Assembly: GCA_016212295.1 (NCBI GenBank)
Contig: JACRGO010000042.1
Span: forward strand, 1-61,754
Origin: Nitrospinota bacterium
GTDB lineage: Bacteria; Nitrospinota; Nitrospinia; JACRGO01
DNA: 61,754 nucleotides
Direction: 5' to 3'
The stretch's first letter is position 1; the number at the start of each line of letters is the position of its first letter. A program made the translations under genes and the position numbers. Positions 8,549 to 58,195 of this stretch are shown piece by piece. The notes beneath the pieces are model-generated. The model was not told where the DNA came from and searched no databases. It was given only the letters and a program-made list of their open reading frames with translations.

Positions 8549-8696
8549 GCATAGCGCGACATGCGCGGTAATGGAATTATTGGGGCATTCGGTAATTGTA
8601 ATTTGTGATTTATTTGTAATTTGTTGTTTGTCATTTGGGATTTGGGATTTGGGATTTGGGATTTTGTTTTCCTTTTGGCTGCGTCTCCGCGGTTAA
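8549..8696. repeat. composite repeat: box variant + family A arm + (TTTGGGA)x4 + GC word
   Basis: GCATAGCGCGACATGCGCGGTAATGG (8549-8574). GCATTCGGTAATTGTAATTTGTGATTTATTTGTAATTTG is the reverse complement of the left arm at 16861-16910. A 7-nt tandem repeat TTTGGGA occurs four times at 8634-8661. Confidence 0.8.
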
Positions 8697-8707
8697 TAAA
8701 AAAAACA

Positions 8708-11632
8708 ATGTCAACCGAAATAAAAAAATTGTGGGTCTCCATGGGACTGCATTTCGCGGCGGTGGCTAGCATCATGCTCTGCAGGACCTATGTTGATTTA
8801 TTGTTTCTGTCCACATACCCGAAGTCCTGGCTCCCTTTTTACTTCATGGGGCAGACCGTCGCGACCCTTGTTCTCACCTACATCATCACCCCGCAAATAT
8901 CAAAGGGATCACGTTTAAGAATCTTTCTGAACCTTGTCATCTGCTCCCTGACCCTTGTCGCCGCCATATTCCTAATGGACCTTGAAATAGACTATTTCCC
9001 CTTTGCCCTTTGCCTGTGGCTGGCCGCGTTTTCGGTCCTACTGGGCGTGATCTCCTGGAATTGCGTCGGGGACGCCTTTGACGCCAGGGCCTTTAAAAGG
9101 ATCATTCTATGGATTAACGTCGCCGGGAGCGTCGGCGGATTGGTGGTGGGCCTGCTCATCCCCTCCATAATTTACTGGTACAGCGCGGACATGCTCTTGT
9201 ATATATTGATCGTGCTGACCCTTGTCCAGGGATGCCTGGTATACATGCTGGAGCCTTTGCCGGCCTCCTCCAGGAAGATGAAGGGCGGGCAATCGCCGAT
9301 GAATTATACCCTGTTCAAGAGCCTGGCCGTGGGCGTGTTTCTGCTTTTTGTAGTTGACACATTCGCCGACTACGCGCTCAAGGCCGAGGTGGGCGCGGCT
9401 TACACCAAGGAAGGTATCGGCAAATTCATGGGGCCGTTTTACGGCCTTTCAAGCGTACTCATCCTGGCTGTCCAGTTTGGCGGGACCAATCATCTTATAA
9501 AATATTTCGGGATCGCGGGGCTTCTGGCGGTTTTGCCCGGGTTCTGTCTTCTCGTTAATCTGGGTATGATAGCGTATCCCGGCCTTTGGGTCGCCGCCGC
9601 CTTCCGCATGGGGGAGATGGTGTTCCGCTACAGCGTGGACAACATAGGCCGCGAGCTTGCCGCCAATCCGTTGCCAAGCCCCATACGAAAGGCCGGAAAG
9701 CTTTTCCTCAAGGGAGTGGTCACGCCCATCGGCTCCGGGGCCGGAGCGGTGGTCCTGTGGCTTCTGGCCGAAACTTTCGGGCTTCGCGGCATAGCCTTCG
9801 CCACGGTGGCGGTTTCAGGGTTCTGGATGCTTGCTAACAGGCAGACCAGGAACGCATATCAGTCCACCCTGGAAGAAACGGTAAAGCAGAAGCGCTTTAT
9901 CGCTGACATGGATGGAGATGATCCGGCTAGCCGGGAGGCGTCAATGGGCGTCGCTTTACAGGCCCTTGGGGAAAAGGACCCGGACTCCATACGCTTCGGG
10001 TTGGCCTTGCTTGAGGACATTAAATTTGACAAAATACCCCAACCGGCCTTGGAGCACCTGAATTCCGAACACCCGGACATAAGGGCCTCGGTGCTGAAAT
10101 TGGCGATGAGGGTACAGGACACTGGCATTGTCCCAAGGCTTGTGAAACAGCTTGAGGCGGAGCGGGAGCCGGAGGTCGTCTGGCGGCTGCTGGACGCCTT
10201 GGCAGCCATTGACCCCGCCTCAGCCTCGCCCTTCGCGGAAAAATTATTGAAAAGCCAGGACGCCGAGATCAGGGCCAGCGCGATCCTGGTCCTGATGCTG
10301 GCCGGGAGCCTTAGCCTGCTGGCGGAAGCCGTCAATTCCTTGAAGGACATGGTTTTCAGCTCTGATCCCTTGATGCGCAAGGGGGCCGCCCGCGCCATGG
10401 GCGCTTTAAAAGGGGGCAAACTCGGACAGGAACTGCGGTTATTGATTCACGACCCTAGCGAGGACGTGTGCATAACCACCATCAGGTCCGCTTCCCAGCG
10501 CCAATCACTGTGCCTGATTGAGGACATAGCCTCCAAATTGGGGCGGGGAAGGACGTCGCACTACGCGAGCCGGGCCCTGGCGGAATTGGGAGTGGCCACG
10601 GTCCCGCACCTTCTGAAGGCAGCGCGCCAGGGAAAGGAAAGGACCATTCGCGCCGCTATAAAGACGATGGCCATGATCCCCGGGGAAGAAGTGGAAGACG
10701 CCCTGGCGGAGGTCGCCTGCTCTGAAATGCCGCTTACCAGGAACATCGTGGCCAAGGAGTCGGCCTTGCGCGCCGGCCGCATGCCGGTTTCCAAGGCGTT
10801 CAGGAAAAAGGCCATTGGCTTCGTGGAAGAAGAGGCCGGCGCGATCAGGATATTGAAATCCGGAAGGACCTTGGATTCACTTTCGGGCTTCGTGAAGTCC
10901 GAGCTGTCGTGCCGCCTGGGACTGGCCCAGACCAGGCTGCTTCATTGGTTCGCGGTCTGCACGCGGCCTGCCGAGGTGATGGGGGTGATGCCCCTGGTCC
11001 TTTCCGGCGAAAGGTCCAAGGACACGGCCGCGCGTCGCGGCGCCGCAATGGAATTGCTTGACACTCTTGCGTCCGACAAGAGGTTGAAGAATTCCATATT
11101 GGAGTTTGAAAAGGAGGCCCGCGCCAATGGGAACGCGGAAAAACTCATGGAGGAACTTAAAAATCTGAATGACCCGTGGCTCAGGAGGGTCCTTTCAGAC
11201 GAATTTCATGAATATAAAGGAGTCCCGATGAATATAGCCCAAAAGGTAATGGCGTTTAAAAAGGTCAAATTATTTGAAAGTCTGCCAGGCGAAATATTAA
11301 TGACCATCGCCGAGGAAAGCGAAACCCGGGAAATGATAAAGGGCGCTAAAATAGTGTCAACCGGCGAGGCCTCTGACGGCCTGTATATAATCGCTTCAGG
11401 GACCGTGCGCATTGAAATAAACGGCCAGCCGGTAAGGACCTTGGGGGAGAGCGATTTTTTCGGCGAGGTTGGGCTTTTGGATGATTCAGCCCGGGCCGCT
11501 GACGCAGTGGCCAACGAGGATGGGCTGCTATTTTTCATAGGAAAGGAAACCTTCGGCGCGATCACGGAAGACCTGCCGGAAGTCATGCGCGCCGTGGTCA
11601 AGACCATCATCGGTTATCTCAAGAAAAAGTAA
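8708..11632 (+). CDS. polytopic transporter-like (TLC/MFS-like) membrane domain - HEAT repeats - cyclic-nucleotide-binding domain protein
   Basis: About 420 aa of TM helices, including an RKAGKLFLKGVVTPIGSGAGA segment. The middle section has HEAT-like repeats (DPDSIRFGLALL, HPDIRASVLKLA, DAEIRASAILVL, DPLMRKGAARAMG). The C-terminal cNMP-binding fold reads FFGEVGLLDDSARAADAVA. I chose the ATG at 8708; the ORF-track start at 8621 lies inside a repeat. Confidence 0.7.
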   Translation: MSTEIKKLWVSMGLHFAAVASIMLCRTYVDLLFLSTYPKSWLPFYFMGQTVATLVLTYIITPQISKGSRLRIFLNLVICSLTLVAAIFLMDLEIDYFPFALCLWLAAFSVLLGVISWNCVGDAFDARAFKRIILWINVAGSVGGLVVGLLIPSIIYWYSADMLLYILIVLTLVQGCLVYMLEPLPASSRKMKGGQSPMNYTLFKSLAVGVFLLFVVDTFADYALKAEVGAAYTKEGIGKFMGPFYGLSSVLILAVQFGGTNHLIKYFGIAGLLAVLPGFCLLVNLGMIAYPGLWVAAAFRMGEMVFRYSVDNIGRELAANPLPSPIRKAGKLFLKGVVTPIGSGAGAVVLWLLAETFGLRGIAFATVAVSGFWMLANRQTRNAYQSTLEETVKQKRFIADMDGDDPASREASMGVALQALGEKDPDSIRFGLALLEDIKFDKIPQPALEHLNSEHPDIRASVLKLAMRVQDTGIVPRLVKQLEAEREPEVVWRLLDALAAIDPASASPFAEKLLKSQDAEIRASAILVLMLAGSLSLLAEAVNSLKDMVFSSDPLMRKGAARAMGALKGGKLGQELRLLIHDPSEDVCITTIRSASQRQSLCLIEDIASKLGRGRTSHYASRALAELGVATVPHLLKAARQGKERTIRAAIKTMAMIPGEEVEDALAEVACSEMPLTRNIVAKESALRAGRMPVSKAFRKKAIGFVEEEAGAIRILKSGRTLDSLSGFVKSELSCRLGLAQTRLLHWFAVCTRPAEVMGVMPLVLSGERSKDTAARRGAAMELLDTLASDKRLKNSILEFEKEARANGNAEKLMEELKNLNDPWLRRVLSDEFHEYKGVPMNIAQKVMAFKKVKLFESLPGEILMTIAEESETREMIKGAKIVSTGEASDGLYIIASGTVRIEINGQPVRTLGESDFFGEVGLLDDSARAADAVANEDGLLFFIGKETFGAITEDLPEVMRAVVKTIIGYLKKK

Positions 11633-11694
11633 TGGAGACAGCCCTCATCAGGGAACAGGATAGCGCATAAAAATTAAGCGGTTTTGGCCTTGGA

Positions 11695-11724
11695 AAAAAT
11701 TCGCGCGCTTGGCCGCGAATTTTT
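11695..11724 (+). terminator. Rho-independent terminator candidate
   Basis: Perfect 11-bp stem AAAAATTCGCG / CGCGAATTTTT with an 8-nt loop and a T-run at the 3' side. It lies about 60 nt after the stop at 11632. Confidence 0.4.
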
Positions 11725-11812
11725 ACAGAGAGAAACATGATTTTATGTATTTTTTGGTTTAAAATATTTTTGGATGTTTTATATTTTGGCCAATATATAA
11801 AAATTTGCGGTT

Positions 11813-12091
11813 ATGAAGTATTTCGACTGGAATGATGAGAAAAATGAAATGCTTAAAAAAACGCGCAATGTATCATTTGAACAGGTTGAATTGGCAATTG
11901 TATCAGGAGACTTGATAGATAGACTAAAGCATCCGAATTCGGCAGAATATCCAAATCAGAAGGTATTTCTGGTGAAGATTGAAGATTATATTTACTCCGT
12001 GCCATTTGTTGAAGATAGCGAAAAAATATTTTTGAAAACAATAATACCGAACAAAAAGGCAACAAAAAAATATCTGGAAGGCAATAAATGA
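11813..12091 (+). CDS. brnT: BrnT-like (DUF497) toxin
   Basis: 92 aa. FDWNDEKNEMLKKTRNVSFEQV N-terminus and IFLKTIIPNKKATKKY C-terminus. 4-nt ATGA overlap with the next gene. Confidence 0.6.
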   Translation: MKYFDWNDEKNEMLKKTRNVSFEQVELAIVSGDLIDRLKHPNSAEYPNQKVFLVKIEDYIYSVPFVEDSEKIFLKTIIPNKKATKKYLEGNK

Positions 12092-12363
12092 AAAAAACAA
12101 CGTTAGACAAAGAAGAAATCGGGCTATCAAAATCACTTGAGAGCGAAGAGTGGGTTTCCGACCTGACGGAAAAAGAGAAAAAGCAATATGAAGAATATGC
12201 TCAATATAGTCTTAATAAACAAAGACGCATTAATATTCAAATAACCGAGCGGGATTTAATGAAAATCAGGGCCAAGGCAATCGAAGAGGGCATCCCGTAC
12301 CAATCACTTATTTCCATGATAATTCATAAATACAATGAAGGGAAAGTATCAATTAACCAGTGA
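12088..12363 (+). CDS. brnA: BrnA-like CopG/RHH antitoxin
   Basis: 91 aa. C-terminal RINIQITERDLMKIRAKAIEEGIPYQSLISMIIHKY resembles a ribbon-helix-helix antitoxin. Translationally coupled to brnT. Confidence 0.6.
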   Translation: MKKTTLDKEEIGLSKSLESEEWVSDLTEKEKKQYEEYAQYSLNKQRRINIQITERDLMKIRAKAIEEGIPYQSLISMIIHKYNEGKVSINQ

Positions 12364-12369
12364 GGTGAT

Positions 12370-13128: not shown

Positions 13129-13146
13129 GCGCTTATCCGCCTGCTC

Positions 13147-13172
13147 ATAGCGCGGCATGGCCGCAATCAAAA
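13147..13172 (+). repeat. GCGGC-box (REP-like)
   Basis: ATAGCGCGGCATGGCCGCAATCAAAA. Confidence 0.85.
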
Positions 13173-13207
13173 CGTAATATATAAAGCCTTTTCCTGCTAT
13201 TCCTAAA

Positions 13208-16775: not shown

Positions 16776-16835
16776 AATGAAATATCCTAACCCGAATAAA
16801 CCGGAAAAGAAAAGGAATGGAACGCGGATGACGCG

Positions 16836-17000
16836 GCGCGGCATGGCCGCAACCAAAATGAAAACAAAATCCCAAATGACAAATAGCAAATAAATTACAA
16901 TTACCGAATGCAAAAAACAATTCCTTTTCATTGTTTTTCCTTGTAATTTTGGTTATTGAGATTTATTTGTTATTTGACAATTGTTATTTGGAGTTTCATA
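16836..17000. repeat. GCGGC-box + family A word-hairpin element (full copy)
   Basis: GCGCGGCATGGCCGCAACCAAAATG, then an AT-rich left arm, the loop CCGAATGCAAAAAACAATTCC, and the right module TTGGTTATTGAGATTTATTTGTTATTTGACAATTGTTATTTGGAGTTTCAT. Confidence 0.9.
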
Positions 17001-19718: not shown

Positions 19719-20557
19719 TTTTTTGTTCGTTTGAGAAAAATCACTCCAGCGTTGAAGGAGCTTCGGACAAATGGTCCTGAGGCCACGTGGAGAAATCCCA
19801 TCCCCTCTCCTATCTCCCTGTACTCCTCGAATCGTTCCGGGGGGACGTAGGCGGCCACTGGACGTTGTGATTTGCCAGGCTGCAGGTATTGTCCTATGGT
19901 CGCCACATCGCATCCCGCGGCCCTTAGATCTTTCAGCGCTTCAATAACCTCTTCATGGCTTTCCCCCAATCCTAGCATGATTCCGGATTTTGTTATCAGG
20001 GCCGGATTTCTTTCCTTTGCGCGTTTCAGGAGGTCAAGGGACCTATTATAATCAGACGAGGGGCGGACGGCAGGGTAAAGCCTTGGCACGGTCTCTATGT
20101 TGTGGTTGAAGACGTCCGGCCGCAGGCAGGTTTCCGGAAAAAAATCGGGGACCAGTATCTCGATGGTGGCCTGCGTCCTTTGCCGCAGCATTGATATGGT
20201 ATCGGCGTAATGGGAGGCCCCGCCGTCCGGGAGATCGTCCCGCGTGACCGATGTAATGACCACGTGTTTTAGTCGCAATTCCCCGGCCATCCTTGCCACC
20301 CGATGCGGTTCCTCCCTGTCCACCGGAAGGGGCGCGCCTTTATTCACGCCGCAAAAACCGCATGCGCGCGTGCATACGTCGCCAAGGATCATGAAGGTGG
20401 CCGTGGATCTGGAAAAACATTCATGGATATTCGGGCACGACGCCGATTCGCATACGGTGTGGAGCCGGAGCTCACGCAGCCTTTTTTTCAAAGCATGCGA
20501 TTTTCCGGAGGACGGAAAACTTTTTATCAGCCACGAGGGTTTTCTGGGAGAAGACAT
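19688..20557 (-). CDS. lipA: lipoyl synthase
   Basis: CESASCPNIHEC and CTRACGFC cluster motifs. The last ~10 codons (KKNPGVSSQNK) are encoded by the family D repeat arm. Confidence 0.9.
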   Translation of the reverse strand: MSSPRKPSWLIKSFPSSGKSHALKKRLRELRLHTVCESASCPNIHECFSRSTATFMILGDVCTRACGFCGVNKGAPLPVDREEPHRVARMAGELRLKHVVITSVTRDDLPDGGASHYADTISMLRQRTQATIEILVPDFFPETCLRPDVFNHNIETVPRLYPAVRPSSDYNRSLDLLKRAKERNPALITKSGIMLGLGESHEEVIEALKDLRAAGCDVATIGQYLQPGKSQRPVAAYVPPERFEEYREIGEGMGFLHVASGPFVRSSFNAGVIFLKRTKKNPGVSSQNK

Positions 20558-20576: not shown

Positions 20577-20684
20577 CACCACAAAGACACCAAGCGCGCA
20601 AAGAAAAAATTATAAAAAAGTTTGTGGCCTTGGTGTCTTTGCGGGGAATTCTTGGTTCTCTTGGTTGCGGCCACGTTGCGCTAT
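20577..20684. repeat. family C hairpin (CAAAGAC words) + inverted GCGGC-box
   Basis: CACCACAAAGACACCAAGCGCGCAAAG (20577-20603) versus TTTGTGGCCTTGGTGTCTTTGCGGGG (20621-20646). Followed by TTGGTTGCGGCCACGTTGCGCTAT (20661-20684), the box in reverse orientation. Confidence 0.8.
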
Positions 20685-20927
20685 GGTTTTAAAAAAATCA
20701 TAACGGCGGCAAGCCCGGGAAGTCAAGGAAGGGGACGCGCAAAGACCACAAAATTTTTAAAAAATTTCAAAAATATGAATATTTTACCGATAAGCTGAAT
20801 ACTGGAGTTTTCTTCCCGTCCGCATAGGAAACAATTTCCCCTTTTCCCCTTCTCTTCAATAGTATTTCTTCCCCCTTAATTTGCCTAACTGTTTGTTTTT
20901 TAAGCGTTTTTGGAGTTGCGCCATATT

Positions 20928-24934: not shown

Positions 24935-25039
24935 GTGGCCGCCGCGCAAGTTGCGAACCATGTAATGGAATTTTATAATTATTGAAATGTATATTCCATT
25001 ACGTTCAGAAATTTATTTTGATCGCGTCCGTACCTCGCT

Positions 25040-25504
25040 ATGAATTACCACGGATATACCTTAATAATACACATCGCCTCGGCCTCGGCTTTCGCCATGG
25101 CCATGATCATCATGCAACTGGTTGTGGCGAACGTGATGAAGCGGATTCCGGATAGCCCCGGAAAAAAGGACGCCTCTCTTTTCATACAAAAAAAATGGCA
25201 TCCGGTAGTGGACGGCATAATCATTGCCGTCGGGGCCTCGGCTGCGGTCCTGGCCGCTTCAAGCTGGGGGGTAATACAATCAAGTCCGATCTTGTCAGCC
25301 AAGGCGGCCTTCGGTTCAGCGGCCCTCTGCTCGGCATACGCCAATCATTTCGTGTTCCGGTACTGGAAAAGGGGGCTTAGCGCGTCTGGAAAAAATCCGG
25401 GCCTTCTGAAAAAACTTGGAAAGACCACCGCTGTCCTTGACAAGACGGCCCTAGTCTGCGGAGTTATCACGGTTTGCCTCGGCTGGCATTGGGGGCATGG
25501 TTAG
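25040..25504 (+). CDS. hypothetical 4-TM membrane protein
   Basis: 154 aa, hydrophobic. Its end overlaps the start of the next gene by 8 nt. Confidence 0.45.
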   Translation: MNYHGYTLIIHIASASAFAMAMIIMQLVVANVMKRIPDSPGKKDASLFIQKKWHPVVDGIIIAVGASAAVLAASSWGVIQSSPILSAKAAFGSAALCSAYANHFVFRYWKRGLSASGKNPGLLKKLGKTTAVLDKTALVCGVITVCLGWHWGHG

Positions 25505-27266: not shown

Positions 27267-27370
27267 TTAATGAAAAACCTGGAACCACGAATGACCACGA
27301 ATTAAATAGTATAGGAATTTCCATTTTTTCCGCTTATAAATCAAATAGTTGCGTGTTAGCGACATCAGGC

Positions 27371-30021: not shown

Positions 30022-30057
30022 TCGAAATTTATTTTGGGTGCGGCCACGCCGCGCTAT
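30022..30057 (-). repeat. extended GCGGC-box (reverse orientation)
   Basis: TCGAAATTTATTTTGGGTGCGGCCACGCCGCGCTAT is the reverse complement of ATAGCGCGGCGTGGCCGCACCCAAAATAAATTTCGA. It fills the cbiXC-to-rSAM intergenic gap. Confidence 0.85.
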
Positions 30058-31154: not shown

Positions 31155-31222
31155 TAATCGCCTTTAGTTAATAAGAAAAAATTCAATAGATAAAGAAAAG
31201 TTGATTTTTTTAATAGAACATT

Positions 31223-31263
31223 GCGCGGCTTCGCCGCAACCAAAATAAATTTTCCGTGCATCA
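31223..31263 (+). repeat. extended GCGGC-box variant
   Basis: GCGCGGCTTCGCCGCAACCAAAATAAATTTTCCGTGCATCA. Confidence 0.8.
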
Positions 31264-33870: not shown

Positions 33871-33882
33871 ACGGAAAGACCT

Positions 33883-37163: not shown

Positions 37164-39457
37164 TTACGAAAATCAAACGACTTAAAAACATTGGAAAATT
37201 TTATGACTTTTCGGCACAGGCAAACGCCCTCGACTGGCATAAGAACACATTTGTTTTAGCCCCTAATGCTTATGGTAAAACAACCCTTGTCAATGTTCTT
37301 CGCTCGCTCTGTGATAATAACCCAAAGTTGATCCGCGCCCGAAAAACCCTGGGCTCAACCACCGAACCTGAAGCGATAATTGTGATTGACAGCGCGAACT
37401 ACGTTTTCAATGGCACAAGATGGGATCAGCCATATCCAGCGATTCAGATTTTCGACGCGCCCTTCATTCACGCCAATATCCTTACGCACGAAATCGGCCA
37501 TGAGCACAAGAAGAACATCCATAAAATCATCATCGGCGCGGAAGGGGTCAAGCTGGCCGATGAGCTTTCAAACCTGAAAGCGAAGGAAAAGGCGAAGAGC
37601 CAGGAAGTTGTAAATCTTGCCAAACAGTTCACTCTGGGAGGGTTCATCACCTTGTCGTTCGATGCATTCCTTGCTCTTCATCCCAACGAGGAAGCAGCCG
37701 TTGGCCCGCGCATTCAACAACTGGAACAAGACATCAAGTTGAAACAATCAGAGGGGGCCGTTCAAGGACTTGACTTCCCTCGTACAATCGAGGCCCCGGC
37801 GTTCGATTCAACCGGCATGAAGGCGACTGTCGCCAAGAAGTTGACCGCCACGCATGAAACCGCTGAAAAGCGTATGCTTGAACATATTGACTGGAACTTC
37901 AAAGACAAGGCTCACGCAAAGCAATTTATCCGCCTAGGCCTTGACCATGCACAGGCGAATTGCCCTTTTTGCGGGCAAGACCTCAAAAACGCTACGGACC
38001 TGTTAAAGGCATACAGGGAATTTTTCGACGATGCATTCCGGACGTACCAGCAAAGTATTGTCCAACAGCTCGCCGCGGTGAGTGGGTGGAATATCGATAA
38101 CGACCTCACTGCCTTGGTTTCAGCGCACAATTTAAACCTTGCTACGTTGAGACAGTGGGAGCCTTACCTCGGCACAATTGCGTTACCGGATGTCGTCACA
38201 GCAGTTGACTCATGCCGATCCAGATTAGTTGAGTTGAAAGGCAAGATTCAATCCGAACTGGAGAAGAAGCAGAAAGACCCCAATACCGACGCAGACCAGT
38301 CGCAATTCGACGCTCTTACCACTGAACTTGCCTGGTTGAAGACTGCTGTCGAGGGGTACAACGCCGCAGTGTCCTCTTTTATCGAGAAAGCCAAACAGTA
38401 CATTGCCAATCTCCCGAAGTCGGACATTACTTCACTCCAAGGTGCATTGGCTAAAGAGAAAGAAATAAAAAAATGGTTTGAGCCCGGATGGAAAAGATTG
38501 GCTACCGATTACCCAGCGACAAAGAAGGAGGCTGATGCTCTCATCAACCAAAAGAATGCGAAACAGAAAGAACTTGAGACATACGGTAAGGCCATTTTCG
38601 ATACTTATCAGAAGCGGATCAATGAATTACTCGTGACATTAGGAACCGACTTTATCATCACAGGTTTGGCCGGGAAGACAGATGCACGGGCAAATGAAAG
38701 TTACACCGATTTCGGTTTCCTCATTCTGAAACAAACAGTTCCGCTGGCAACTCGCCAGGATGATGTGCCTTGTTTCAAAAACACGCTCAGCGAAGGCGAC
38801 AAGAGCACTCTTGCTTTTGCTTTTTTTATCGCAATGCTGGAGAAGACCCCGGAACTTGAAAAACAAATCGTCGTCCTCGATGACCCGCTTTCCAGTCTGG
38901 ATGAAACACAGAGGGAGGCAACCGCCCGATTACTATTGGCCTTATCACCTGCCGTGAAACAGATTACAGTATTCACACATAAACGGGACTTTCTGTATAT
39001 GCTTTGCGATAAGATACCAGAAAACCAAGTCCTACAGATCCGTTCGGACAAAAAAAGCGGTAGCCGATTTGAGTTTTTCAACTTGGAGGAAGAGCGCAAA
39101 AGTGATCATGCCCGTATAATCGAGGATATGGAGCGCTATATTGATGAAGATTTTGGTCCAACTACCGATTCGATGCAAGGCAATATTCGGAAGCTTTTTG
39201 AAGTTGTTCTCAAAACCAAGTACTACAGCACCCTTGCCGTGGACATAAAGGCCAATCGTGGTTTATCATCCCTTTTAACCACTCTTTTCAATGCCGGGCT
39301 TCTGGATACTACCTTGAAACCACGCTTGTTTGACCTGTGTTCAGTGGCAAATGGCCCTCATCACGGTGAAATAGTTGATGCAACTCCAAGGAGGCTCAGC
39401 AGAGATGAACTTATCTCTTTAATACGGGAAGCCCTTGATCTTGTGCAAAAAGTCTAA
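37160..39457 (+). CDS. rloC: RloC-like AAA_13 (PrrC/RloC family) ATPase with coiled-coil zinc hook; candidate anticodon nuclease
   Basis: IKRLKNIGKFY start, Walker A APNAYGKTT, and a long coiled-coil insert containing CPFCGQ (37961-37975). ABC signature LSEGDKSTLAFAF, Walker B IVVLDDPLSSLD, H-loop VFTH. The C-terminal region has RKLFE and GPHHGE. The ATGA start overlaps the hsdMS stop, and a GGAGGAG ribosome-binding site lies upstream. Confidence 0.65.
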   Translation: MITKIKRLKNIGKFYDFSAQANALDWHKNTFVLAPNAYGKTTLVNVLRSLCDNNPKLIRARKTLGSTTEPEAIIVIDSANYVFNGTRWDQPYPAIQIFDAPFIHANILTHEIGHEHKKNIHKIIIGAEGVKLADELSNLKAKEKAKSQEVVNLAKQFTLGGFITLSFDAFLALHPNEEAAVGPRIQQLEQDIKLKQSEGAVQGLDFPRTIEAPAFDSTGMKATVAKKLTATHETAEKRMLEHIDWNFKDKAHAKQFIRLGLDHAQANCPFCGQDLKNATDLLKAYREFFDDAFRTYQQSIVQQLAAVSGWNIDNDLTALVSAHNLNLATLRQWEPYLGTIALPDVVTAVDSCRSRLVELKGKIQSELEKKQKDPNTDADQSQFDALTTELAWLKTAVEGYNAAVSSFIEKAKQYIANLPKSDITSLQGALAKEKEIKKWFEPGWKRLATDYPATKKEADALINQKNAKQKELETYGKAIFDTYQKRINELLVTLGTDFIITGLAGKTDARANESYTDFGFLILKQTVPLATRQDDVPCFKNTLSEGDKSTLAFAFFIAMLEKTPELEKQIVVLDDPLSSLDETQREATARLLLALSPAVKQITVFTHKRDFLYMLCDKIPENQVLQIRSDKKSGSRFEFFNLEEERKSDHARIIEDMERYIDEDFGPTTDSMQGNIRKLFEVVLKTKYYSTLAVDIKANRGLSSLLTTLFNAGLLDTTLKPRLFDLCSVANGPHHGEIVDATPRRLSRDELISLIREALDLVQKV

Positions 39458-39590: not shown

Positions 39591-39677
39591 GATTTTGTAA
39601 TTTTGGTATTGAAATTTATTTGTTATTTGACAATTGTGATTTGAAATTTTATCCGCGATAATCCGCGTTATCCGCGT
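39591..39677. repeat. family A right module + (ATCCGCG) words
   Basis: GATTTTGTAATTTTGGTATTGAAATTTATTTGTTATTTGACAATTGTGATTTGAAATTTTATCCGCGATAATCCGCGTTATCCGCG. Confidence 0.85.
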
Positions 39678-39685
39678 TCTATTTT

Positions 39686-45459: not shown

Positions 45460-45637
45460 AACGCGACGCGGCCGCAAGCTTCTGAACGTTATAATTGTAT
45501 TCCGGCAATTGCCGCCTATCATAAGATTCAGGGTGAGCGGAGTCAACAGGCAAATTAAAAAAATTAAAATTTTGCTTCAATAGCGCATGGGGTGAAAAGC
45601 CGTCTTTGATTGTGTTAATATCATTAAATGTTTTAAT

Positions 45638-45676
45638 GCATCGAAAATTTATTTGGTTGCGGCAACGTCGCGCTAT
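45638..45676 (-). repeat. extended GCGGC-box (reverse orientation)
   Basis: GCATCGAAAATTTATTTGGTTGCGGCAACGTCGCGCTAT. The terminal CTAT plus G forms the ATG of the DUF2062 gene. Confidence 0.85.
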
Positions 45677-46127
45677 GTATCGATATTTCAGCAGAATAAA
45701 AGAACACTTCCTGCAGATTCTTATTTTAGATGGTTCACCTCACAAGGCTTCCCTGGCCTTTGCGATTGGGGTGTTCATCGCCTTTGCTCCTCACTTAGGC
45801 CTGCATACGGTCTCGGCCGTTGCCCTTTCCTGGCTTTTAAGGCTGAATCTTCCAATCATGCTGATAGGGGCGTTTTTAAATAATCCCTGGACCATTATTC
45901 CACTGTATGGATTTTGCCTGTGCGTGGGTAACTATATGCTTGGGAATGGATTCATTTGCCTTCCCGCCGGGCTTTCCGGGGACGAGCTGCTTGATTTCCT
46001 GAAAACCACCCCCCTTCCATTCGTGGCCGGGACATTAACGACTGGATCCCTGGCCTCGGTTATGAGCTATTTCATCTCGAAAAGGGTCCTGGCCCTGGTG
46101 CATCCGGCAACAGACAAAAGAACATAG
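45675..46127 (+). CDS. DUF2062 domain membrane protein
   Basis: GSPHKASLAFAIGVFIAFAPHLGLHTVSAVALSWLLRLNLPIMLIGAFLNNPWT. Confidence 0.65.
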   Translation: MYRYFSRIKEHFLQILILDGSPHKASLAFAIGVFIAFAPHLGLHTVSAVALSWLLRLNLPIMLIGAFLNNPWTIIPLYGFCLCVGNYMLGNGFICLPAGLSGDELLDFLKTTPLPFVAGTLTTGSLASVMSYFISKRVLALVHPATDKRT

Positions 46128-46129
46128 CT

Positions 46130-46287
46130 TAGCGCGGCATGGCCGCAACCAAAAACAAGAAATAACCACAAAGGACACAAATTTGAACGCTTTGTGGTAA
46201 AAAATACTCTAGCCAGAATTACAAATGACAAACAAGGAAATGGAATTGTTTTGGGCATCCGGTAATTGTAATTTGTAATTTGAACGC
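46130..46287. repeat. GCGGC-box + small family C-like hairpin + family A hairpin
   Basis: TAGCGCGGCATGGCCGCAACCAAAAAC. ACCACAAAG...CTTTGTGGT (46164-46199). GAATTACAAATGACAAACAAGG versus CCGGTAATTGTAATTTGTAATT. Confidence 0.85.
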
Positions 46288-46322
46288 CGTCTTAATTTTT
46301 TTAGGAGGTTTTTGGTCCCGCT

Positions 46323-47594
46323 TTGGACGAGTCTATAATTATTCGATTAATATTTCTCGGGGCCCTGCTTGCCCTTTCCGCCTTTTTCTCCGGCTGCGAG
46401 GCGGCCTTTTTTTCTCTTAGCAGGCTGAAGGTCGACAACCTTGAATCCCAAAAGGGCCGAAGGGGGAAAATGGTCGCCGCCCTCCTCGCCAACCCCAGGC
46501 TGCTCCTGACCGTTATTTACGCCGGCAATGAGATGGTCAACGTCGCGGCGGCAGCGGTTGTCACCTCTGTTTCCATCCATTTCCTTGGCGACTCCGGCGT
46601 CGGCTTCGCCATAGGCATCGGGACTTTGCTGATCCTGGTCTTTGGGGAAATCACCCCTAAAACGCTTGTATTGAGACACGCCGAGAGCTTCGCCCTGGGC
46701 GCCGCCCCCTTTCTCAATATTTTCTCCCTTCTCATTAAGCCAGTGAACCAATTATTGGCCCGCATCGCCGATCTTTCCGTGCACATCTTTTTACCTATAC
46801 ATAGAAAAAAGGGAGAGCTTACCGAGGGAGAAATCAAAACCATCGTCACGGTCGGGGAAGGGGAAGGGGTCATCGAAGCCGACGAAAAGGACCTTATCCA
46901 CAACATCTTTGAATTTGGAGACACCACCGTCTCGGAAATAATGACCCCGAAGAACGATGTTTTTTCCCTTGACGCCAACACCTCGGTCCCGGATATCATC
47001 TCACGCGCGAAGAAAACCTTTTTCTCCAGAATTCCGGTTTACGAGGACAATAAGGAAAATATCATCGGCGTCCTTTATATGAAGGACATCCTGAGGCTGC
47101 ATATTTCCGGCAAAAAAGATCTGTCTCTTCGCCAGATGCTGCATCCGGCCTTCATCATTCCCGAATCAAAGAAGGTGCGGGACCTGTTGAGGGACTTTAA
47201 AATCAAGAAGGTCCACCTTGCCGTGGTCTACGACGAATACGGCGGCCTGGAGGGAATCGCTACCCTTGAGGACGTCCTTGAGGAAATAGTAGGGGAGATT
47301 GAAGGGGAGCGGCGAAGGGACGATGTGCCTGTCATCAAGATGAATGAGAATGAATATGCCGTCCTTGGCAATGTGCCGATTCAGGACTTCAACGAGGAAT
47401 TCGGCTCTTCCCTGCCGGACGAGGAATACAACAGCATAGGAGGATTTGTTTTCAGCCTGCTTGGAAGGCTCCCCATCAAGGGAGAATCTGTTTCCCATGA
47501 AAACATGCGGTTTATAGTGGACAAGGTGAAGGGACCCAGGATTTTAAGGCTATTGCTGAAGGTGAATATTAAACCGGAAGAAAAGGCAGCATAG
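46323..47594 (+). CDS. CNNM/TlyC-family protein (DUF21-CBS pair-CorC_HlyC)
   Basis: FFSGCEAAFFSLSR and GEITPKT (DUF21), a CBS pair, and the C-terminal GGFVFSLLGRLP (CorC_HlyC). TTG start. Confidence 0.8.
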   Translation: MDESIIIRLIFLGALLALSAFFSGCEAAFFSLSRLKVDNLESQKGRRGKMVAALLANPRLLLTVIYAGNEMVNVAAAAVVTSVSIHFLGDSGVGFAIGIGTLLILVFGEITPKTLVLRHAESFALGAAPFLNIFSLLIKPVNQLLARIADLSVHIFLPIHRKKGELTEGEIKTIVTVGEGEGVIEADEKDLIHNIFEFGDTTVSEIMTPKNDVFSLDANTSVPDIISRAKKTFFSRIPVYEDNKENIIGVLYMKDILRLHISGKKDLSLRQMLHPAFIIPESKKVRDLLRDFKIKKVHLAVVYDEYGGLEGIATLEDVLEEIVGEIEGERRRDDVPVIKMNENEYAVLGNVPIQDFNEEFGSSLPDEEYNSIGGFVFSLLGRLPIKGESVSHENMRFIVDKVKGPRILRLLLKVNIKPEEKAA

Positions 47595-47780
47595 CGCGAC
47601 GCGGCCGCAATCAAAAGGAAATGGGAAACAAAATTACAAATGACAAATATCAAATTACAAATAAATTCCAAATTACAATTACCGAATGTCCAAAACAATT
47701 CCATTTCCTTGTTTGTCATTTGTAAATTTGGTTATTGAGATTTATTTGTGATTTGGCAATTGTGATTTGGATTTTCATAA
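47591..47780. repeat. GCGGC-box + family A word-hairpin element (full copy)
   Basis: ATAGCGCGACGCGGCCGCAATCAAAAGG; the gene's TAG stop at 47592-47594 lies inside the box. Nested inverted words follow: GGAAATGG/CCATTTCC and ACAAATGACAAA/TTTGTCATTTGT. The right module ends in TTTCAT. Confidence 0.9.
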
Positions 47781-47872
47781 CACTTTGCAAAAAAAACAAA
47801 GTGTTATACGTTTGTAGTACAGGAGGAGACTTGAAATTCTTCAGCAATCAATTCAATAAGGGCCTGCATGGT

Positions 47873-49213
47873 ATGTTTTTCCGCGCCCTGCCTGGATGTG
47901 CATTGTTAGTTGTGCTGTTTGGATGCTCCAAACCGCCGGCTGAAAACCTGCTCTTTATTTCCTTTGACACCACGAGGGCGGACCACCTCTCGGCTTACGG
48001 CTATAAAATTAAAACTTCGCCCAATATCGACGCCCTTGCCGCCCAGGGCGTCCTTTTCCAAAGGGCCTTTTCCCATGCGCCTTCCACCCTGCCGTCCCAT
48101 GCTTCCATGTTTACAGGAAAACTACCCCCGGACCACGGCGTTCGCTGCAACGGCAAATTCACGCTGCCGGAAGAACAATTAACGCTTGCGGAAATACTAT
48201 ACGGCAACGGATTTGAAACCGGCGCGGTATTGGGGGCCTTTCCGTTGGACAAGCGTTTCGGACTGGACCAGGGATTCAGTTTTTATGATGATGATTTCAG
48301 ATTGTCACAATTAACTTTAAAACACCAGGCAAGCGAAAGGGTAATGGACAAAGTGGGCTTCTGGCAGGGGCAAACTTATTTGGATTTTGAGCGCAATGCG
48401 TATGAGGTCACAACCCTTGCCACAAAGTGGCTGCAAAAAACAAAGGGAAGGTGGTTCCTTTTCGTTCATTATTTTGATCCACACGAGCCTTATGAACCGC
48501 CCCCGGCTTGGAGGACGCTCTTTGAAAATCAGTATGACGCTGAAATCGCCTTCGCGGACCGCCAGTTAGGGAAGCTCCTGGAGACCGTGAATTCGATGCC
48601 TGGGAAGACGTTAATAGTTTTTACCGCTGACCACGGACAGGGATTGGGAGACCATGGGGAGATAACCCATGATCGCTATCTGTACGACTCCACCCAATGG
48701 ATCCCCCTCGTCTTTTGCATGAAAGATAAGATTAAAGCTGGGAGCAAAATCATAAATCCTGTGAGCCATATAGATGTAATGCCGACCATTCTTGATTTAT
48801 TGGGCGTTCCTTCCACCGAAGGCATTCAAGGAAGGTCATTGGCCAAGGCCATCCTTGCCGGGGAAGACCTGGAAAATAAACCCATTTACATGGAATCCCT
48901 TAGCCATAAACTGGAAAAGCCTGAAGGCATTGACGTCAGGGGCCTGGTGCGGGATAACTGGAAATTCATACTCACCAATGAAGAACATGGGGGTAAAAAG
49001 ACTATAAGGAAAGAGCTTTATGATCTGGACTCCGGGGGGGGGGGGGGGGGGGAGAACGCCGATTTGTCATTAAAGGAAGCGGGCCGCGCCGCTGAGATGG
49101 ATAAAAAATTGTCAGGCTGGGTGGAAAAACTGGAACATGAAGGGGCTAAACCAAACCCCCTTAAAATCAGCGAGGAAACAAGGCAAAAGCTGAAAAGTTT
49201 GGGGTATTTATAA
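47873..49213 (+). CDS. sulfatase-like (alkaline-phosphatase superfamily) lipoprotein
   Basis: Lipobox-like LLVVLFGC. LLFISFDTTRADHLSAYGY metal site. The nucleophile region reads APSTLPSHASMFTG, i.e. T-x-P-S-H rather than C/S-x-P-x-R. I chose the ATG at 47873. Confidence 0.75.
   Translation: MFFRALPGCALLVVLFGCSKPPAENLLFISFDTTRADHLSAYGYKIKTSPNIDALAAQGVLFQRAFSHAPSTLPSHASMFTGKLPPDHGVRCNGKFTLPEEQLTLAEILYGNGFETGAVLGAFPLDKRFGLDQGFSFYDDDFRLSQLTLKHQASERVMDKVGFWQGQTYLDFERNAYEVTTLATKWLQKTKGRWFLFVHYFDPHEPYEPPPAWRTLFENQYDAEIAFADRQLGKLLETVNSMPGKTLIVFTADHGQGLGDHGEITHDRYLYDSTQWIPLVFCMKDKIKAGSKIINPVSHIDVMPTILDLLGVPSTEGIQGRSLAKAILAGEDLENKPIYMESLSHKLEKPEGIDVRGLVRDNWKFILTNEEHGGKKTIRKELYDLDSGGGGGGENADLSLKEAGRAAEMDKKLSGWVEKLEHEGAKPNPLKISEETRQKLKSLGYL
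49034..49052 (+). repeat. G19 homopolymer inside the sulfatase-like CDS
   Basis: I counted 19 consecutive G from 49034 to 49052. They encode Gly6 in the current frame (DLDSGGGGGGENADL). Confidence 0.95.
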
Positions 49214-49286
49214 GAAGATGCTTGCACGGAATATCCGGGAATTCGTCTCTTATCAATTAAAACCAGGAAAAAAATAAAAGATTTTT

Positions 49287-49493
49287 AACCACGAATGGAC
49301 ACTAATGAACACTAATTATTTTTAGTAGTTTTATAAAATTCGTGTTAATTCGTGGTTCAGGTTGCCTTTTTTTCAAACAGCTAAAATGTTACAAAATTTC
49401 AAATATTTTAGGATAGTTCTTAGTGTTTCTTGGCGGCTTTGTGTCTTAGTGGCAAAAAAAATGGTAAACACAAAACCACGAAGAAACACGAAT
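49287..49493. repeat. two word-hairpins, family E (ACCACGAAT / ACACTAAT / GTGTTTCTT words)
   Basis: AACCACGAATGGACACTAATGAACACTAATT (49287-49317) versus AATTCGTGTTAATTCGTGGTT (49337-49357). CTTAGTGTTTCTTGGCGGCTTTGTGTCTTAGTGG (49419-49452) versus AAACACAAAACCACGAAGAAACACGAAT (49467-49493). A related GAACCACGAATGACCACGAATT lies at about 27283-27304. Confidence 0.8.
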
Positions 49494-49550
49494 ATTCTAT
49501 GAAAACACACCTTTTGATCTTTAGAAACAATTAGCGCATAAATTATAAGA

Positions 49551-50810: not shown

Positions 50811-50830
50811 AGGGTCTCCACGGATTGCCG

Positions 50831-50959
50831 CAGCGCTGCTTCGACGCAACCAAAATGAGAGCAAAATTTCAAATCCCAAATAGCAAATTACAAATAAGTT
50901 CCAAACTACAATTGCATAGAGCGGCATGGCCGCAACCAAAATAAATTTCGATGCATTCA
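50831..50959. repeat. two GCGGC-boxes flanking a family A arm
   Basis: CAGCGCTGCTTCGACGCAACCAAAATG, then an AT-rich arm, then CATAGAGCGGCATGGCCGCAACCAAAATAAATTTCGATGCATTCA. Confidence 0.85.
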
Positions 50960-50990
50960 GGGCTGGGCCAGCAGGATAGTAAGGGAAGAG

Positions 50991-51860: not shown

Positions 51861-51921
51861 TCTTTTCCCTTTTACTCTTTTACCCTTTTGGGTTTTCTGT
51901 TTTTTGTTTTTTTGTTTTTCT

Positions 51922-53730: not shown

Positions 53731-53820
53731 TAAATCCTTTCTTCCTTTTTCGACGTTCGATGTTCAGCGTTGGATGTTCGATGTTCAATTCTTTAAAGCC
53801 CGCCCGAAGGGCGTTAAATT
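53731..53820. repeat. family B half element with conserved tail
   Basis: TAAATCCTTTCTTCCTTTTTCGACGTTCGATGTTCAGCGTTGGATGTTCGATGTTCAATTCTTTAAAGCCCGCCCGAAGGGCGTTAAATT is about 90 percent identical to 75-163. Confidence 0.9.
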
Positions 53821-53918
53821 CTAATCCAACCTTGGGGCCGCTGACGCCATCATAGCCGCGACCGCGGTTGAGAATGATTTAACCCTTCTGACGTCTTTTC
53901 TCCAGGCCGGAACGCGCC

Positions 53919-56996: not shown

Positions 56997-57000
56997 GGGG

Positions 57001-57196
57001 GAAACCAAATTTCAAATGACAAATAACAAATCCCAAATAAATTCCAAATTACAATTGCTGAATGTGCTGAGCAATTCCTTTTCCTTGTTTGTTCTTTGTA
57101 ATTTTGGTTATTGAGATTTATTTGTGATTTGACATTTGTGATTTGGAGTTTCATGGCGCGGCACGGCCGCAACCAAAATAAATTTCGACGTATTCA
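57001..57196. repeat. family A word-hairpin element (full copy) + extended GCGGC-box
   Basis: AT-rich left arm, the loop GCTGAATGTGCTGAGCAATTCC, the right module TTGGTTATTGAGATTTATTTGTGATTTGACATTTGTGATTTGGAGTTTCAT, then GGCGCGGCACGGCCGCAACCAAAATAAATTTCGACGTATTCA. Confidence 0.9.
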
Positions 57197-57310
57197 AACG
57201 CCCATGAAGCGTTGACGATAGTTCCGCGCCCTATCTTCTTTTCATTACTAAATCCCTGGCTCCTGATCCCTGACACCCGTGAACTATTACCGAGAATTTA
57301 ACGGGCGCGG

Positions 57311-57964
57311 TCAAACCTGTTTCAGCCTTTCCAGGTCTTCATCCTTGCCCAATACCACGAGGACGTCGCTGTCCTTTATTATAAAATCAGGGCTTGGAAT
57401 TATATTGAACTTTTCCGGGACAAGCTCCCTTATCGCCACAACCTGCACATTATAATCACTTCTTATTTTCAGGCTCTTGATCGATTTGCCGATAAATGAT
57501 TGGGGAGGGGCTATTTCCATTAAACTGTAGCCGGGCGAGAGCTCGAGTTGATCCAGGACATTCGCGGAGCTCAGGGTGTCGCCCAGCCTTACCGCCATGT
57601 CCCTTTCCGGGAATATTATGCTGGAGGCCCCTATTTTGCTCACTATCTTGGCATGGTCCTCGTTAAGCACCTTGACAATGACTTCCTTTATCCCCAATTC
57701 CTTCAGATACAGGGTGATCAATATGCTGGCGCTCATATCGCTGCCAAGGCTTACTATCACTCCATCGGCCTTTTCCAGGCCGAGGGATTTGAGGGTCTCC
57801 TTATCGCAGCCGTCCGCCACGATGGCCTCGCTGACATAATCCTTTACGTCCTGTATCTTGTCCTTGTCAATATCCAGGACCATCACCTCGCAACCATTGT
57901 TCGCCAATTGCAAGGCAAGGTGGTGGCCGAAACTGCTGAGCCCGATGACAACAAACTGTCTCAT
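57311..57964 (-). CDS. ktrA: TrkA/KtrA-type K+ uptake regulatory protein (RCK N and C domains)
   Basis: VIGLSSFGHHLALQL Rossmann motif. 217 aa. Confidence 0.85.
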   Translation of the reverse strand: MRQFVVIGLSSFGHHLALQLANNGCEVMVLDIDKDKIQDVKDYVSEAIVADGCDKETLKSLGLEKADGVIVSLGSDMSASILITLYLKELGIKEVIVKVLNEDHAKIVSKIGASSIIFPERDMAVRLGDTLSSANVLDQLELSPGYSLMEIAPPQSFIGKSIKSLKIRSDYNVQVVAIRELVPEKFNIIPSPDFIIKDSDVLVVLGKDEDLERLKQV

Positions 57965-58037
57965 TTTTTATCCTCCTGATTACGGTATATAAATTCCTAC
58001 ACTACCATTCCTAAAAGCTTTGTTTTTTTAACAAAGT

Positions 58038-58195
58038 TTCATGAAAATCCAAATAACAATTGTCAAATAACAAATAAATTGCAATAACCAAAATTGCAAA
58101 AAAACAAACAAGGAAATGACATTATTTTGGACATTCGGTAATTGTGATTTGTAATTTATTTGTCATTCGGAATTTGCCATTTGAGATTTTATTTT
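58038..58195. repeat. family A word-hairpin element (full copy, inverted orientation)
   Basis: ATGAAAATCCAAATAACAATTGTCAAATAACAAATAAATTGCAATAACCAA is the reverse complement of the right module of the 47591 and 57001 copies. It occupies the ktrB-ktrA intergenic gap. Confidence 0.9.

Follow-up and report, generated by a model that had tools for sequence, protein, structure and literature searches.

The window analyzed here, a 61.7-kb stretch from a Nitrospinota bacterium (contig JACRGO010000042.1), contains a dispersed family of hairpin-forming intergenic repeats of about 155 nt, which we call Family A. The existence of the family was confirmed: four copies are full-length (141-160 nt, 79-90% alike) and four or five are truncated, all of them intergenic, in agreement with an original prediction of at least eight copies whose coordinates match ours within a few bases. 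We favor, with moderate confidence, the view that Family A is a non-autonomous foldback repeat resembling REPIN, ERIC, and miniature inverted-repeat transposable elements (MITEs), one that spreads and decays quickly and changes length by slippage of heptamers. The copies and fragments are as follows.

16858-17000, + strand: full copy c16, nhmmer score 126.9 bits, left arm short by two heptamers (14 nt)
47621-47779, + strand: full copy c47, nhmmer score 159.5 bits
56998-57155, + strand: full copy c57, nhmmer score 162.2 bits
58040-58199, - strand: full copy c58, inverted, nhmmer score 149.6 bits
8542-8644, - strand: c8, left arm and center with no right arm, model positions 11-115, E 6e-15; its array runs to 8696
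46207-46282, - strand: c46, center and inner arms, model positions 43-118, E 1e-17
50856-50916, + strand: c50, left arm only, model positions 4-64, E 3e-9
39594-39649, + strand: c39, right arm only, model positions 100-156, E 5e-8
7757-7788, - strand: weak right-arm fragment (outer end), E 0.005

The profile behind these matches was made with nhmmer from the four full copies and then run on the window. It re-finds those copies with E-values of 1e-38 to 1e-49, which are circular because the profile derives from the same sequences. Pairwise blastn and repeat identities, which are independent of the profile, give the same 79-90% among the full copies with the asymmetric center included, and an alignment of the four with a fifth copy from another contig (L110) has a mean column identity of 86%. 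The right module, predicted as a nearly identical block of roughly 50 nt, is 51 nt long and occurs four times with at most two mismatches, against an expectation of zero (none of 100 shuffles contained even one match). The truncated copy c46 is 92% complementary to 47663-47734, and the stretch 7727-7788 is a mirror of 39620-39681 (62 nt, 87% complementary), both consisting of the right-arm outer end and ATCCGCG-type words. Because the non-palindromic center is common to them, the copies derive from one another rather than from independent origins.

A full copy is an imperfect foldback with an A-rich left arm of ACAAATn words, a non-palindromic center of about 40 nt, and a T-rich right arm of nATTTGn words. 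On the forward strand, the left half runs from the end GGRAAAC through the ACAAATn-word arm with a conserved ACAAATAAAT to the inner motif CAATTACCGAATG, and the right half consists of the center with a small AT-rich hairpin, TTTTGGTTATTG, and the T-rich right arm ATTTATTTGTKATTTGACAATTGTKATTTGGAKTTTCAT. The arms are 55-60 nt long, AT-rich, and heptamer-periodic. Their words had been described as degenerate and 5-8 nt in size; degenerate they are, with a strict period of 7 nt, as only lag 7 (64 windows of 35 nt) and lag 14 (23 windows) reached at least 70% self-identity and the other lags gave 0-2 windows. This period had been overlooked, as had the further word-hairpin families that the window holds, which share this design, and the occurrence of the arm grammar in many phyla. 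The copy ends (GGRAAAC... and ...GGAKTTTCAT) are similar between copies and mutually complementary, being the outermost part of the palindrome. A small protein on the reverse strand (the frame beginning ATGAAACTCC) was considered and rejected, as the frame is open for about 57 codons in c57 and stops after 20 codons in c47 and 9 in c16.

In the alignment of full copies, the right arm is nearly invariant and the left arm varies by 7- and 14-nt indels and by substitutions. The truncated copy c8 carries a (CCCAAAT)x4 tandem expansion with the top lag-7 score of the window (0.89), and the orthologous copies of c47 in the window and in a relative (L125) differ by 14 nt, exactly two heptamers. These comparisons show that Family A copies change length in 7-nt steps, with slippage acting on resident copies. 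The proposal that the modules occur in different orders was overstated; what we found instead were truncations, an internal deletion, heptamer indels or slippage, and junctions with an abutting GC box. A heptamer-periodic stretch also lies in coding DNA at 35186-35237 (ACGAATGACAAATGACAAATTACGAAT), in frame within the N6-methylase domain region of a type I restriction-modification M/S fusion gene (34593-37163), and it may represent a 21-nt word insertion tolerated in the coding sequence.

The two halves of each full copy were proposed to be imperfect reverse complements, and the full copies do match their own reverse complements with nhmmer E-values of 1e-11 to 8e-10. The arm words given as an example are TTTGTCATTTGT, found exactly at 47712-47723, and ACAAATGACAAA, which lies at 47636-47647, one base from its predicted place. 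Duplex energies between left and right arms were -34 to -39 kcal/mol for the native copies. When the 7-mers of the right arm were block-shuffled the energies fell to -20 to -26 kcal/mol (z -2.9 to -4.2, with 0-1 of 200 shuffles equaling the native arm), and mononucleotide shuffling gave -14 to -17 kcal/mol (z about -6). The words alone thus account for about 60% of the arm pairing energy; because the native duplexes beat the block-shuffled arms, pairing goes beyond word composition and is more than low-complexity AT-rich DNA would give.

Folding of the whole copies gave -37 to -42 kcal/mol, yet the z-scores against dinucleotide shuffles were modest, at -2.4 to -3.4. The values were -41.2 kcal/mol for c16 (opposite strand -34.9), -37.5 for c47 (z -2.4; reverse strand -28.4, z -0.4), -42.2 for c57 (z -3.4), and -38.1 for c58 (z -3.2). 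G:U pairs make the fold of the family's forward strand more stable than that of its complement by 6-10 kcal/mol, and this advantage counts as a single observation since the copies are homologous. No Rfam 15 family matched anywhere in the window at its gathering score, and the E-value mode over 46100-47900 returned only chance-level matches to plant miRNA precursors (16-20 bits against gathering scores of 69-120). A consensus terminator scan flagged no Family A copy, and the stems of the copies are AT-rich. Two sigma-70 promoter candidates, TTGACA-17-CATAAA at the right end of c16 and ATGACA-16-TAAATT in the left arms, were rejected as weak consensus matches that are not conserved between copies.

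We next compared orthologous loci in relatives, which were reached through homologues of three flanking proteins (TrkA, HD-GYP, and CNNM). The percentages below are amino acid identities of these proteins to those of the window.

trkH-trkA, L124 (TrkA 96%): no Family A copy; spacer of 111 nt vs 233 nt in the window
trkH-trkA, L118 (83%): an unrelated hairpin of GTTTCAA/TTGAAAC words at the same spot
trkH-trkA, L119 and L120 (82%): a one-way array of GTTATAR words around GC hairpins at the same spot
Upstream of HD-GYP, L128 (92%) and L129 (58%): copy absent; right junction clean beside a conserved TTTTCTTGCATTT motif
Upstream of CNNM1, L125 (95%): an element of CACGAAT/CACTAAT words in place of c46, beside the conserved junction TTAATTTTTTTAGGAGG
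Downstream of CNNM1, L125 (95%): the orthologous c47 present, two heptamers (14 nt) shorter
DUF2062-CNNM1-CNNM2, L127 (74%): a compact operon with spacers of 51 and 20 nt and no Family A match
DUF2062-CNNM1-CNNM2, L126 (72%): a hairpin of CGATGTT words around a GC-rich stem between the CNNM genes

Three of the four orthologous sites are therefore without the copy in relatives whose proteins are 92-96% identical, and the fourth copy (c47) is shared. The L124 trkH-trkA spacer keeps both flanks of the window's spacer (GGGTAAGGA... and ...GTGTARGAAT..TATACCGTAATCWGGAGGA). Other sites are filled elsewhere, so that insertion polymorphism exists between related genomes. L110 has a copy 79-84% identical at the DNA level beside a protein that is only 54% identical, at a non-orthologous site, and L118 has one at another locus (20072-20216); the center motif CAATTACCGAATG recurs in both, again at other loci, and Family A is thus not confined to the window. 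A metagenome scan with the center motif returned 29 loci, comprising one true member (L110), two more distant matches (L091 and L093), and chance 18-mers for the rest. Taken together, these comparisons show turnover of copies (gain, loss, or replacement) over the time in which species diverge. A Logan contig 100% identical to the window breaks inside c57 at 57042, and the CNNM1 contig of the 95% relative (L125) ends within its orthologous c47. Breaks at copies are expected of a multi-copy repeat, and Family A elements account for short-read contigs of the host that end at gene boundaries.

The nine Family A pieces occupy five co-directional, two convergent, and two divergent spacers, about what is expected if they were placed at random between genes. 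Of the four full copies, three lie downstream of a co-oriented gene, two of them 0-2 nt past the stop codon and the third 27 nt past. Among these, c47 sits between CNNM1 (+, stop at 47594) and a sulfatase gene (+), c57 begins 2 nt past the stop of a sigma-54 activator gene (+) in a convergent spacer, and c58 begins at the trkH stop codon, within the trkH-trkA pair and in the same orientation as both genes. The fourth, c16, lies in the divergent spacer between an aldehyde dehydrogenase gene (-) and a GAF/HD-GYP gene (+), and the truncated c46 lies in the DUF2062-CNNM1 spacer.

Many copies adjoin a second repeat family, the GC box, which consists of a 5-6 bp GC hairpin with an A-rich tail. It is REP-like (REP, repetitive extragenic palindromic), has at least 12 copies in the window, and is often found at or overlapping stop codons.

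13146-13178, 16832-16864, 31219-31251, and 46128-46160, + strand: GC box, CATAGCGCGGCATGGCCGCAACCAAAAT(AAATTTCGAYG)
47590-47622, 50829-50861, 50915-50960, and 57152-57199, + strand: GC box, CATAGCGCGGCATGGCCGCAACCAAAAT
20661-20685, 25008-25047, 30024-30063, 45630-45682, and 59772-59796, - strand: GC box, CATAGCGCGGCATGGCCGCAACCAAAAT

Four of six left ends of Family A copies touch a GC box, partial copies are cut off at one, and the tail of the box, CCAAAATAAATTTC, resembles the Family A core ACAAATAAATTCC. The left end of c16 abuts the box at 16832-16857, the box before c47 overlaps the CNNM1 stop codon, the right end of c57 abuts the extended box at 57152-57199, and c8 has GC hairpins at either end. 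The truncated c50 is flanked by boxes at 50829-50855 and 50915-50960 and looks like an internal-deletion derivative of a c57-like composite that has lost the center and right arm. Another partial copy, c39, is followed by ATCCGCG-type words at 39650-39681.

A small AT-rich hairpin (CACTTTG, A-rich loop, CAAAGTG) also accompanies several copies; it lies after the right ends of c47 (47780-47812) and c58 (57995-58039) and upstream of c46 (46168-46200), and the similarity between c47 and c58 runs on through this CTTTG/CAAAG module. The sulfatase gene (47830-49213) and its flanking repeats separate CNNM paralogues that are adjacent in L126 and L127, and a gene for an FGE-sulfatase comes after CNNM2 in the window. 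This arrangement suggests that gene insertion accompanied repeat expansion at CNNM1-CNNM2.

In the mobile-repeat explanation that we favor, an enzyme encoded elsewhere would make new copies in trans, or intergenic repeats would recombine with or convert one another, and the copies would land at gene ends and in operon spacers. Copies decay through internal deletion and through junctions with the GC-hairpin box, with which Family A forms mosaics. Since both strands read A-rich arm, center, and U-rich arm, any transcript crossing a copy would form a long hairpin of A:U and G:U pairs whose 3' arm is U-rich. Such a hairpin could cause transcriptional pausing or termination, or serve in the protection or processing of mRNA ends, and the host may tolerate or exploit it. 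A precedent for a word hairpin riding in a mobile element is seen in two metagenome-assembled genomes (MAGs) of Bacteroidota, in which a hairpin of the same grammar lies inside a MITE of about 230 nt with its own terminal inverted repeats (TAATTAGTGTCTGTCCATAAA) and is located at many contig ends.

No transposase, integrase, HUH, or RAYT domain was found among the approximately 50 open reading frames of the window with Pfam, as had been predicted, which agrees with a non-autonomous element. Several results weigh against the mobile-repeat explanation. No mobilizing enzyme was identified in the 62 kb of the genome that the analysis covered, nor is any open reading frame flanked by arms in the 87 foreign loci described below. 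We found no consistent direct repeat of 2-10 nt flanking c16, c47, c57, c58, or the L110 copy, and no sharply defined terminal inverted repeat beyond palindromy at the ends of these five. None of the orthologous sites compared offers a clean empty/filled pair with both junctions, and because the relatives hold other filler, the direction of change (gain or loss) is unproven and recombinational replacement is equally possible. Compensatory double changes were few (one of 45 pairs among five sequences and four of 31 pairs among eight, all similar). Periodic arms still pair after a slide of one word, so predicted registers differ between alignments and covariation is uninformative. The coexistence of several word families with one design is easier to reconcile with a generating process that is independent of sequence than with a dedicated transposase for each family. 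The much better conservation of the right arm than of the left hints at a function tied to sequence, which would not be expected of a purely selfish element. The earlier idea of an actively mobilized non-autonomous element is supported as regards a multi-copy, non-coding, non-autonomous sequence with fast turnover; the support does not extend to active transposition, for which no target-site duplication, no clean empty site with both junctions, and no cognate enzyme were found. Searches of viral contigs, phage records, and plasmids returned no meaningful match, and there is thus no sign of a phage or plasmid vector.

We also compared Family A with known classes of small repeats. Like REP, BIME, and REPIN elements, it is an intergenic, non-coding hairpin unit of about 100-160 nt, often found after stop codons or inside operons, that forms mosaics with other motifs (here the GC box), makes no target duplication, and varies between strains. 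REP arms, in contrast, are short GC-rich palindromes (20-40 nt, with a GTAG/CGTC tag, in inverted doublets), whereas Family A arms lack the tag, and the RAYT gene, which in REPIN systems is usually flanked by the repeats, is absent from the open reading frames of the 62-kb window. With ERIC/IRU, Neisseria Correia elements, and other bacterial MITEs it shares an imperfect palindrome of about 100-160 nt, truncated forms, and presence or absence between relatives; dozens of dispersed copies co-transcribed with genes would be a further likeness. It differs from them in having no target-site duplication (Correia elements make TA), no terminal inverted repeat that stands apart from the palindrome, no related insertion sequence (IS) seen in the window, and arms made of tandem sub-repeats. 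Bidirectional intrinsic terminators likewise have an A-rich tract, a hairpin, and a U-rich tract on both strands, and some cross-phylum relatives of Family A are centered on a GC stem. Unlike them, Family A has an AT-rich center, its U-rich tract lies within the stem, and two of its copies are in divergent spacers; the GC-rich stem with a direct U-run at gene 3' ends that marks an intrinsic terminator is not found.

The heptamer repeats of cyanobacteria (STRR, short tandemly repeated repetitive sequences), Beggiatoaceae, and Nostoc resemble Family A in being intergenic arrays of degenerate 7-nt words whose copy number changes in 7-nt steps and for which regulatory binders have been speculated. 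The words TTTGTCA and ACAAATG of the STRR and Nostoc repeats also occur in Family A, and the Family A-related CCCAAAT resembles what we take to be the STRR1 consensus, CCCCAAT. Family A has the 7-nt tandem unit in intergenic DNA, but it is not a one-directional array without a unique core; it forms a separate unit of about 155 nt, present as copies at many loci, in which two inverted arrays surround a conserved center of about 40 nt and the ends are fixed. Pneumococcal BOX elements are modular, with boxA, boxB in variable number, and boxC, in units of 45-59 nt, and eukaryotic Foldback transposons have long inverted arms of short degenerate tandem repeats around a unique center, are kilobase-scale, and in some cases code for proteins. 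Both are analogies for a variable internal unit or for inverted repeat arms; we know of no sequence relationship of either to Family A, and BOX units are 45-59 nt rather than 7 nt. Family A is best described as working like REPIN/BIME, ERIC, and Correia elements, yet it has no GTAG-tagged REP, target-site duplication, or cognate enzyme seen in the window by which it would belong to them. Its distinctive feature is arms that are inverted arrays of degenerate heptanucleotide words, like STRR heptamers set as a hairpin. We found no description in the literature of Family A or of a class of heptamer-word foldbacks.

The window holds at least three or four word-hairpin families, Family A included. 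The others are listed here.

1-164 and 53731-53820: third word family, GAACATC/GATGTTC heptamers; bases 1-140 fold at -55.5 kcal/mol (z -5.9)
27269-27305, 49273-49360, and 49460-49496: fourth word family, AACCACGAAT / CACTAAT, with a hairpin at 49273-49360
39650-39681 and 7727-7756: ATCCGCG-type words (ATCCGCGATAATCCGCGTTATCCGCG), mirror images attached to the Family A right-arm outer end

The hairpin at 1-140 of the third family is followed by a GC hairpin (CCGCCCGAAGGGCG), and words of this family flank the long GC-rich stem between the CNNM genes of the 72% relative (L126, 6128-6440). The fourth family also occurs at 1-100 of L125, where it occupies the place of c46. Relatives have lag-7 segments as well, with at most 1-2 at any other lag.

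The same grammar was found far outside this lineage. A scan of 185,579 species genomes with the right-arm consensus from the original prediction returned 87 loci (best 69 bits). The Nostoc matches were plain one-way (TTTGTCA)n STRR arrays beside start codons with no foldback, and were not counted as members because they are plain STRR arrays. Most of the remaining loci were intergenic hairpins of 130-180 nt with A- and T-rich heptamer arms and a variable center that is sometimes GC-rich and terminator-like. They carry the labels of more than 10 phyla, including Bacteroidota, Desulfobacterota, Nitrospirota, Omnitrophota, Planctomycetota, Ignavibacteriota, Calditrichia, Margulisbacteria, the Candidate Phyla Radiation (CPR), Betaproteobacteria, and others, with the caveats that the search pattern forces part of the similarity and that MAG binning may mislabel contigs. 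Beyond the search pattern, the nnATTTG period goes on for at least three more words, and the inner GGTCATTG/CAATGACC motif recurs. In the Planctomycetota hairpins the order is reversed, with the T-rich arm leading, and the STRR1-like word TTGGGGA occurs as well. In the chromosome of the cultured Planctomicrobium sp. SH661 (L024, 320-560), (TTTGTCA)x7 and (TTGGGGA)x12 are followed by a center and inverted AATGACA/CCCCAAT words; we take these to be the same two words as cyanobacterial STRR2 and STRR1, here in a T-first foldback, and this species could become a tractable model. The likeness across phyla may have come about by convergence of slippage-prone words.

The main alternative to a mobile repeat is an RNA element selected by the host, such as a bidirectional terminator or attenuator, a 3'-end stabilizer, or a processing site for RNase III or E, whose spread would be secondary. 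Such an RNA role is plausible from the sequence and does not exclude mobility, and the placement of three full copies behind a co-oriented gene, with one copy inside trkH-trkA, leaves room for it; as the primary explanation for Family A, however, we consider it rather unlikely. Consistent with an RNA role are the positions of c57 and c58 at 0-2 nt past a co-oriented stop codon (c47 is 27 nt past, behind a GC box), the better folding of the forward strand through G:U pairs, and the presence of c58 within the trkH-trkA pair, where all four relatives also have repeat or hairpin filler (a word hairpin or array in three, of unrelated sequences). Outside this lineage such arms are often found on either side of a GC-rich hairpin that resembles a terminator (L040, L027, and L004). 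Of 28 cross-phylum cases that could be scored, about 22 begin with the A-rich arm, an order which places the U-rich arm 3' on both strands. The Planctomycetota examples, however, have the T-rich arm first, and across phyla the better-folding strand shows no consistent relation to the direction of the flanking gene. Of the nine copies, two are located in divergent promoter spacers, which have no need of a 3' end, and the truncated ones are missing an arm. Close relatives manage without the copy at three sites, and the spacers of L127 are as short as 20-51 nt. Nor was there a covariation signal (from five to eight similar sequences with arms that slide by 7 nt) or a flag in the terminator scan. 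The copies may have a weaker, atypical terminator activity, and the original contrast with simple terminators may or may not hold.

A broader and doubtful idea is that Family A is the local lineage of a pan-bacterial group of heptamer-word foldbacks whose grammar is held in place by a conserved trans-acting reader or mobilizer of 7-nt units. The class may be defined by hairpins of 130-180 nt, (nnATTTG)n arms, ATTTATTTG punctuation, an inner GGTCATTG motif, and a free center. The trans partner could be a single-strand binder of the cold-shock-domain type acting on a terminator/antiterminator switch, or an undescribed mobilizing enzyme. If this is true, the same partner would also account for cyanobacterial STRRs and Beggiatoaceae heptamers.

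It is improbable that the hairpins grew in place, by heptamer slippage on the A/T-rich flanks of small hairpins, intrastrand template switching, and convergence with gene conversion, without any transposition. The strict 7-nt period with indels in 7-nt steps, the several word families of one architecture, and the variable length of the left arm beside a constant right arm would all be explained in this way. Heptanucleotide repeats have been reported to outnumber the other classes of long simple repeats in the majority of prokaryotic genomes examined, which has been attributed to polymerase slippage (Mrazek, 2007, as summarized in PMC4679880). However, the asymmetric center of about 40 nt and the 51-nt right arm with no more than two mismatches are shared at unlinked loci, and CAATTACCGAATG is found at other loci in L110 and L118. 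Copying between loci is thus required, and growth in place fails as the only process.

We give still less weight to the idea that the arms are arrays of binding sites whose putative protein reader would cover about 7 nt at a time, with the hairpin as a switch that such a protein would open or close. Candidate readers include cold-shock-domain or S1-type single-strand binders (for the U/G-rich arm), a DNA-binding regulator, or a nucleoid protein; proteins of the cold-shock type recognize T-rich heptanucleotides and can work as antiterminators. The near invariance of the T/G-rich right arm while the left arm drifts agrees with a reader, as does the nnATTTG period spanning at least eight units in hairpins of many phyla, although the search pattern partly forced that similarity. 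Unidentified heptamer-binding factors have also been proposed for the TAACTGA repeats of Beggiatoaceae (PMC4679880) and for the heptamers of Nostoc (bioRxiv 10.1101/2022.06.06.494920). No associated gene is found in the window, however, and the coexisting word families would need several readers. Finally, chance likeness among low-complexity AT-rich intergenic stretches has virtually no probability left: the roughly 60% of arm pairing energy due to word composition and the modest z-scores of the whole folds point its way, but it is refuted by the profile E-values (1e-15 to 1e-49), the common non-repetitive center, the shuffle test of the 51-nt module (four observed against none in 100 shuffles), and the recovery of Family A in other organisms.

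Small intergenic repeats such as REP, ERIC, Correia, and BOX elements influence how operons are expressed and how plastic genomes are, and assemblies break at them. To our knowledge, the well-studied ones come almost entirely from cultured Proteobacteria and Firmicutes. Family A, from an uncultured lineage, unites heptanucleotide tandem repeats with foldback or MITE-like elements, which are usually treated separately, and its turnover is directly visible between relatives whose proteins are 92-96% identical. Should a common reader or mobilizer lie behind the cross-phylum grammar, it would offer a handle on the decades-old question of the purpose of STRR-type heptamers.

The window itself is ordinary chromosomal DNA with a G+C content of about 51%. 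Pfam searches of its approximately 50 open reading frames identified genes for the flagellar hook and rod, cobalamin synthesis, lipoyl synthase, an aldehyde dehydrogenase, a GAF/HD-GYP protein, a HEAT/cNMP protein, a type I restriction-modification cluster with an AAA_13 ATPase, two CNNM/CorC transporters, a sulfatase, an FGE-sulfatase, LpxB, a sigma-54 activator, trkH-trkA, and a NiFe hydrogenase small subunit. A scan for tRNA and tmRNA found none in the DNA scanned. The closest named homologues of TrkA and CNNM are from MAGs of Nitrospinota, Schekmanbacteria, and 'Deltaproteobacteria'; because their identity reaches only 45-58%, the host belongs to a poorly sampled uncultured lineage. Contigs L118, L119, and L124, whose TrkA proteins are 82-96% identical to that of the window, have a G+C content of 36-44% vs 51% in the window, which could reflect either strong compositional divergence in the lineage or a local effect.

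Several minor features were also observed in the window. A defense-type cluster at 31330-39457 includes the type I restriction-modification genes (HsdR and the M/S fusion), a 23S-IVP-like protein, and the AAA_13 ATPase, and G+C climbs to 56-58% across 30-36 kb of the window. A BrnT/CopG-like toxin-antitoxin pair at 11813-12363 was weak and sub-threshold. Three tandem 33-nt repeats (60877-60975, 82-100% identical) lie within a small coiled-coil open reading frame (60758-61066), where they form an in-frame protein repeat of 11 residues that has no relation to Family A.

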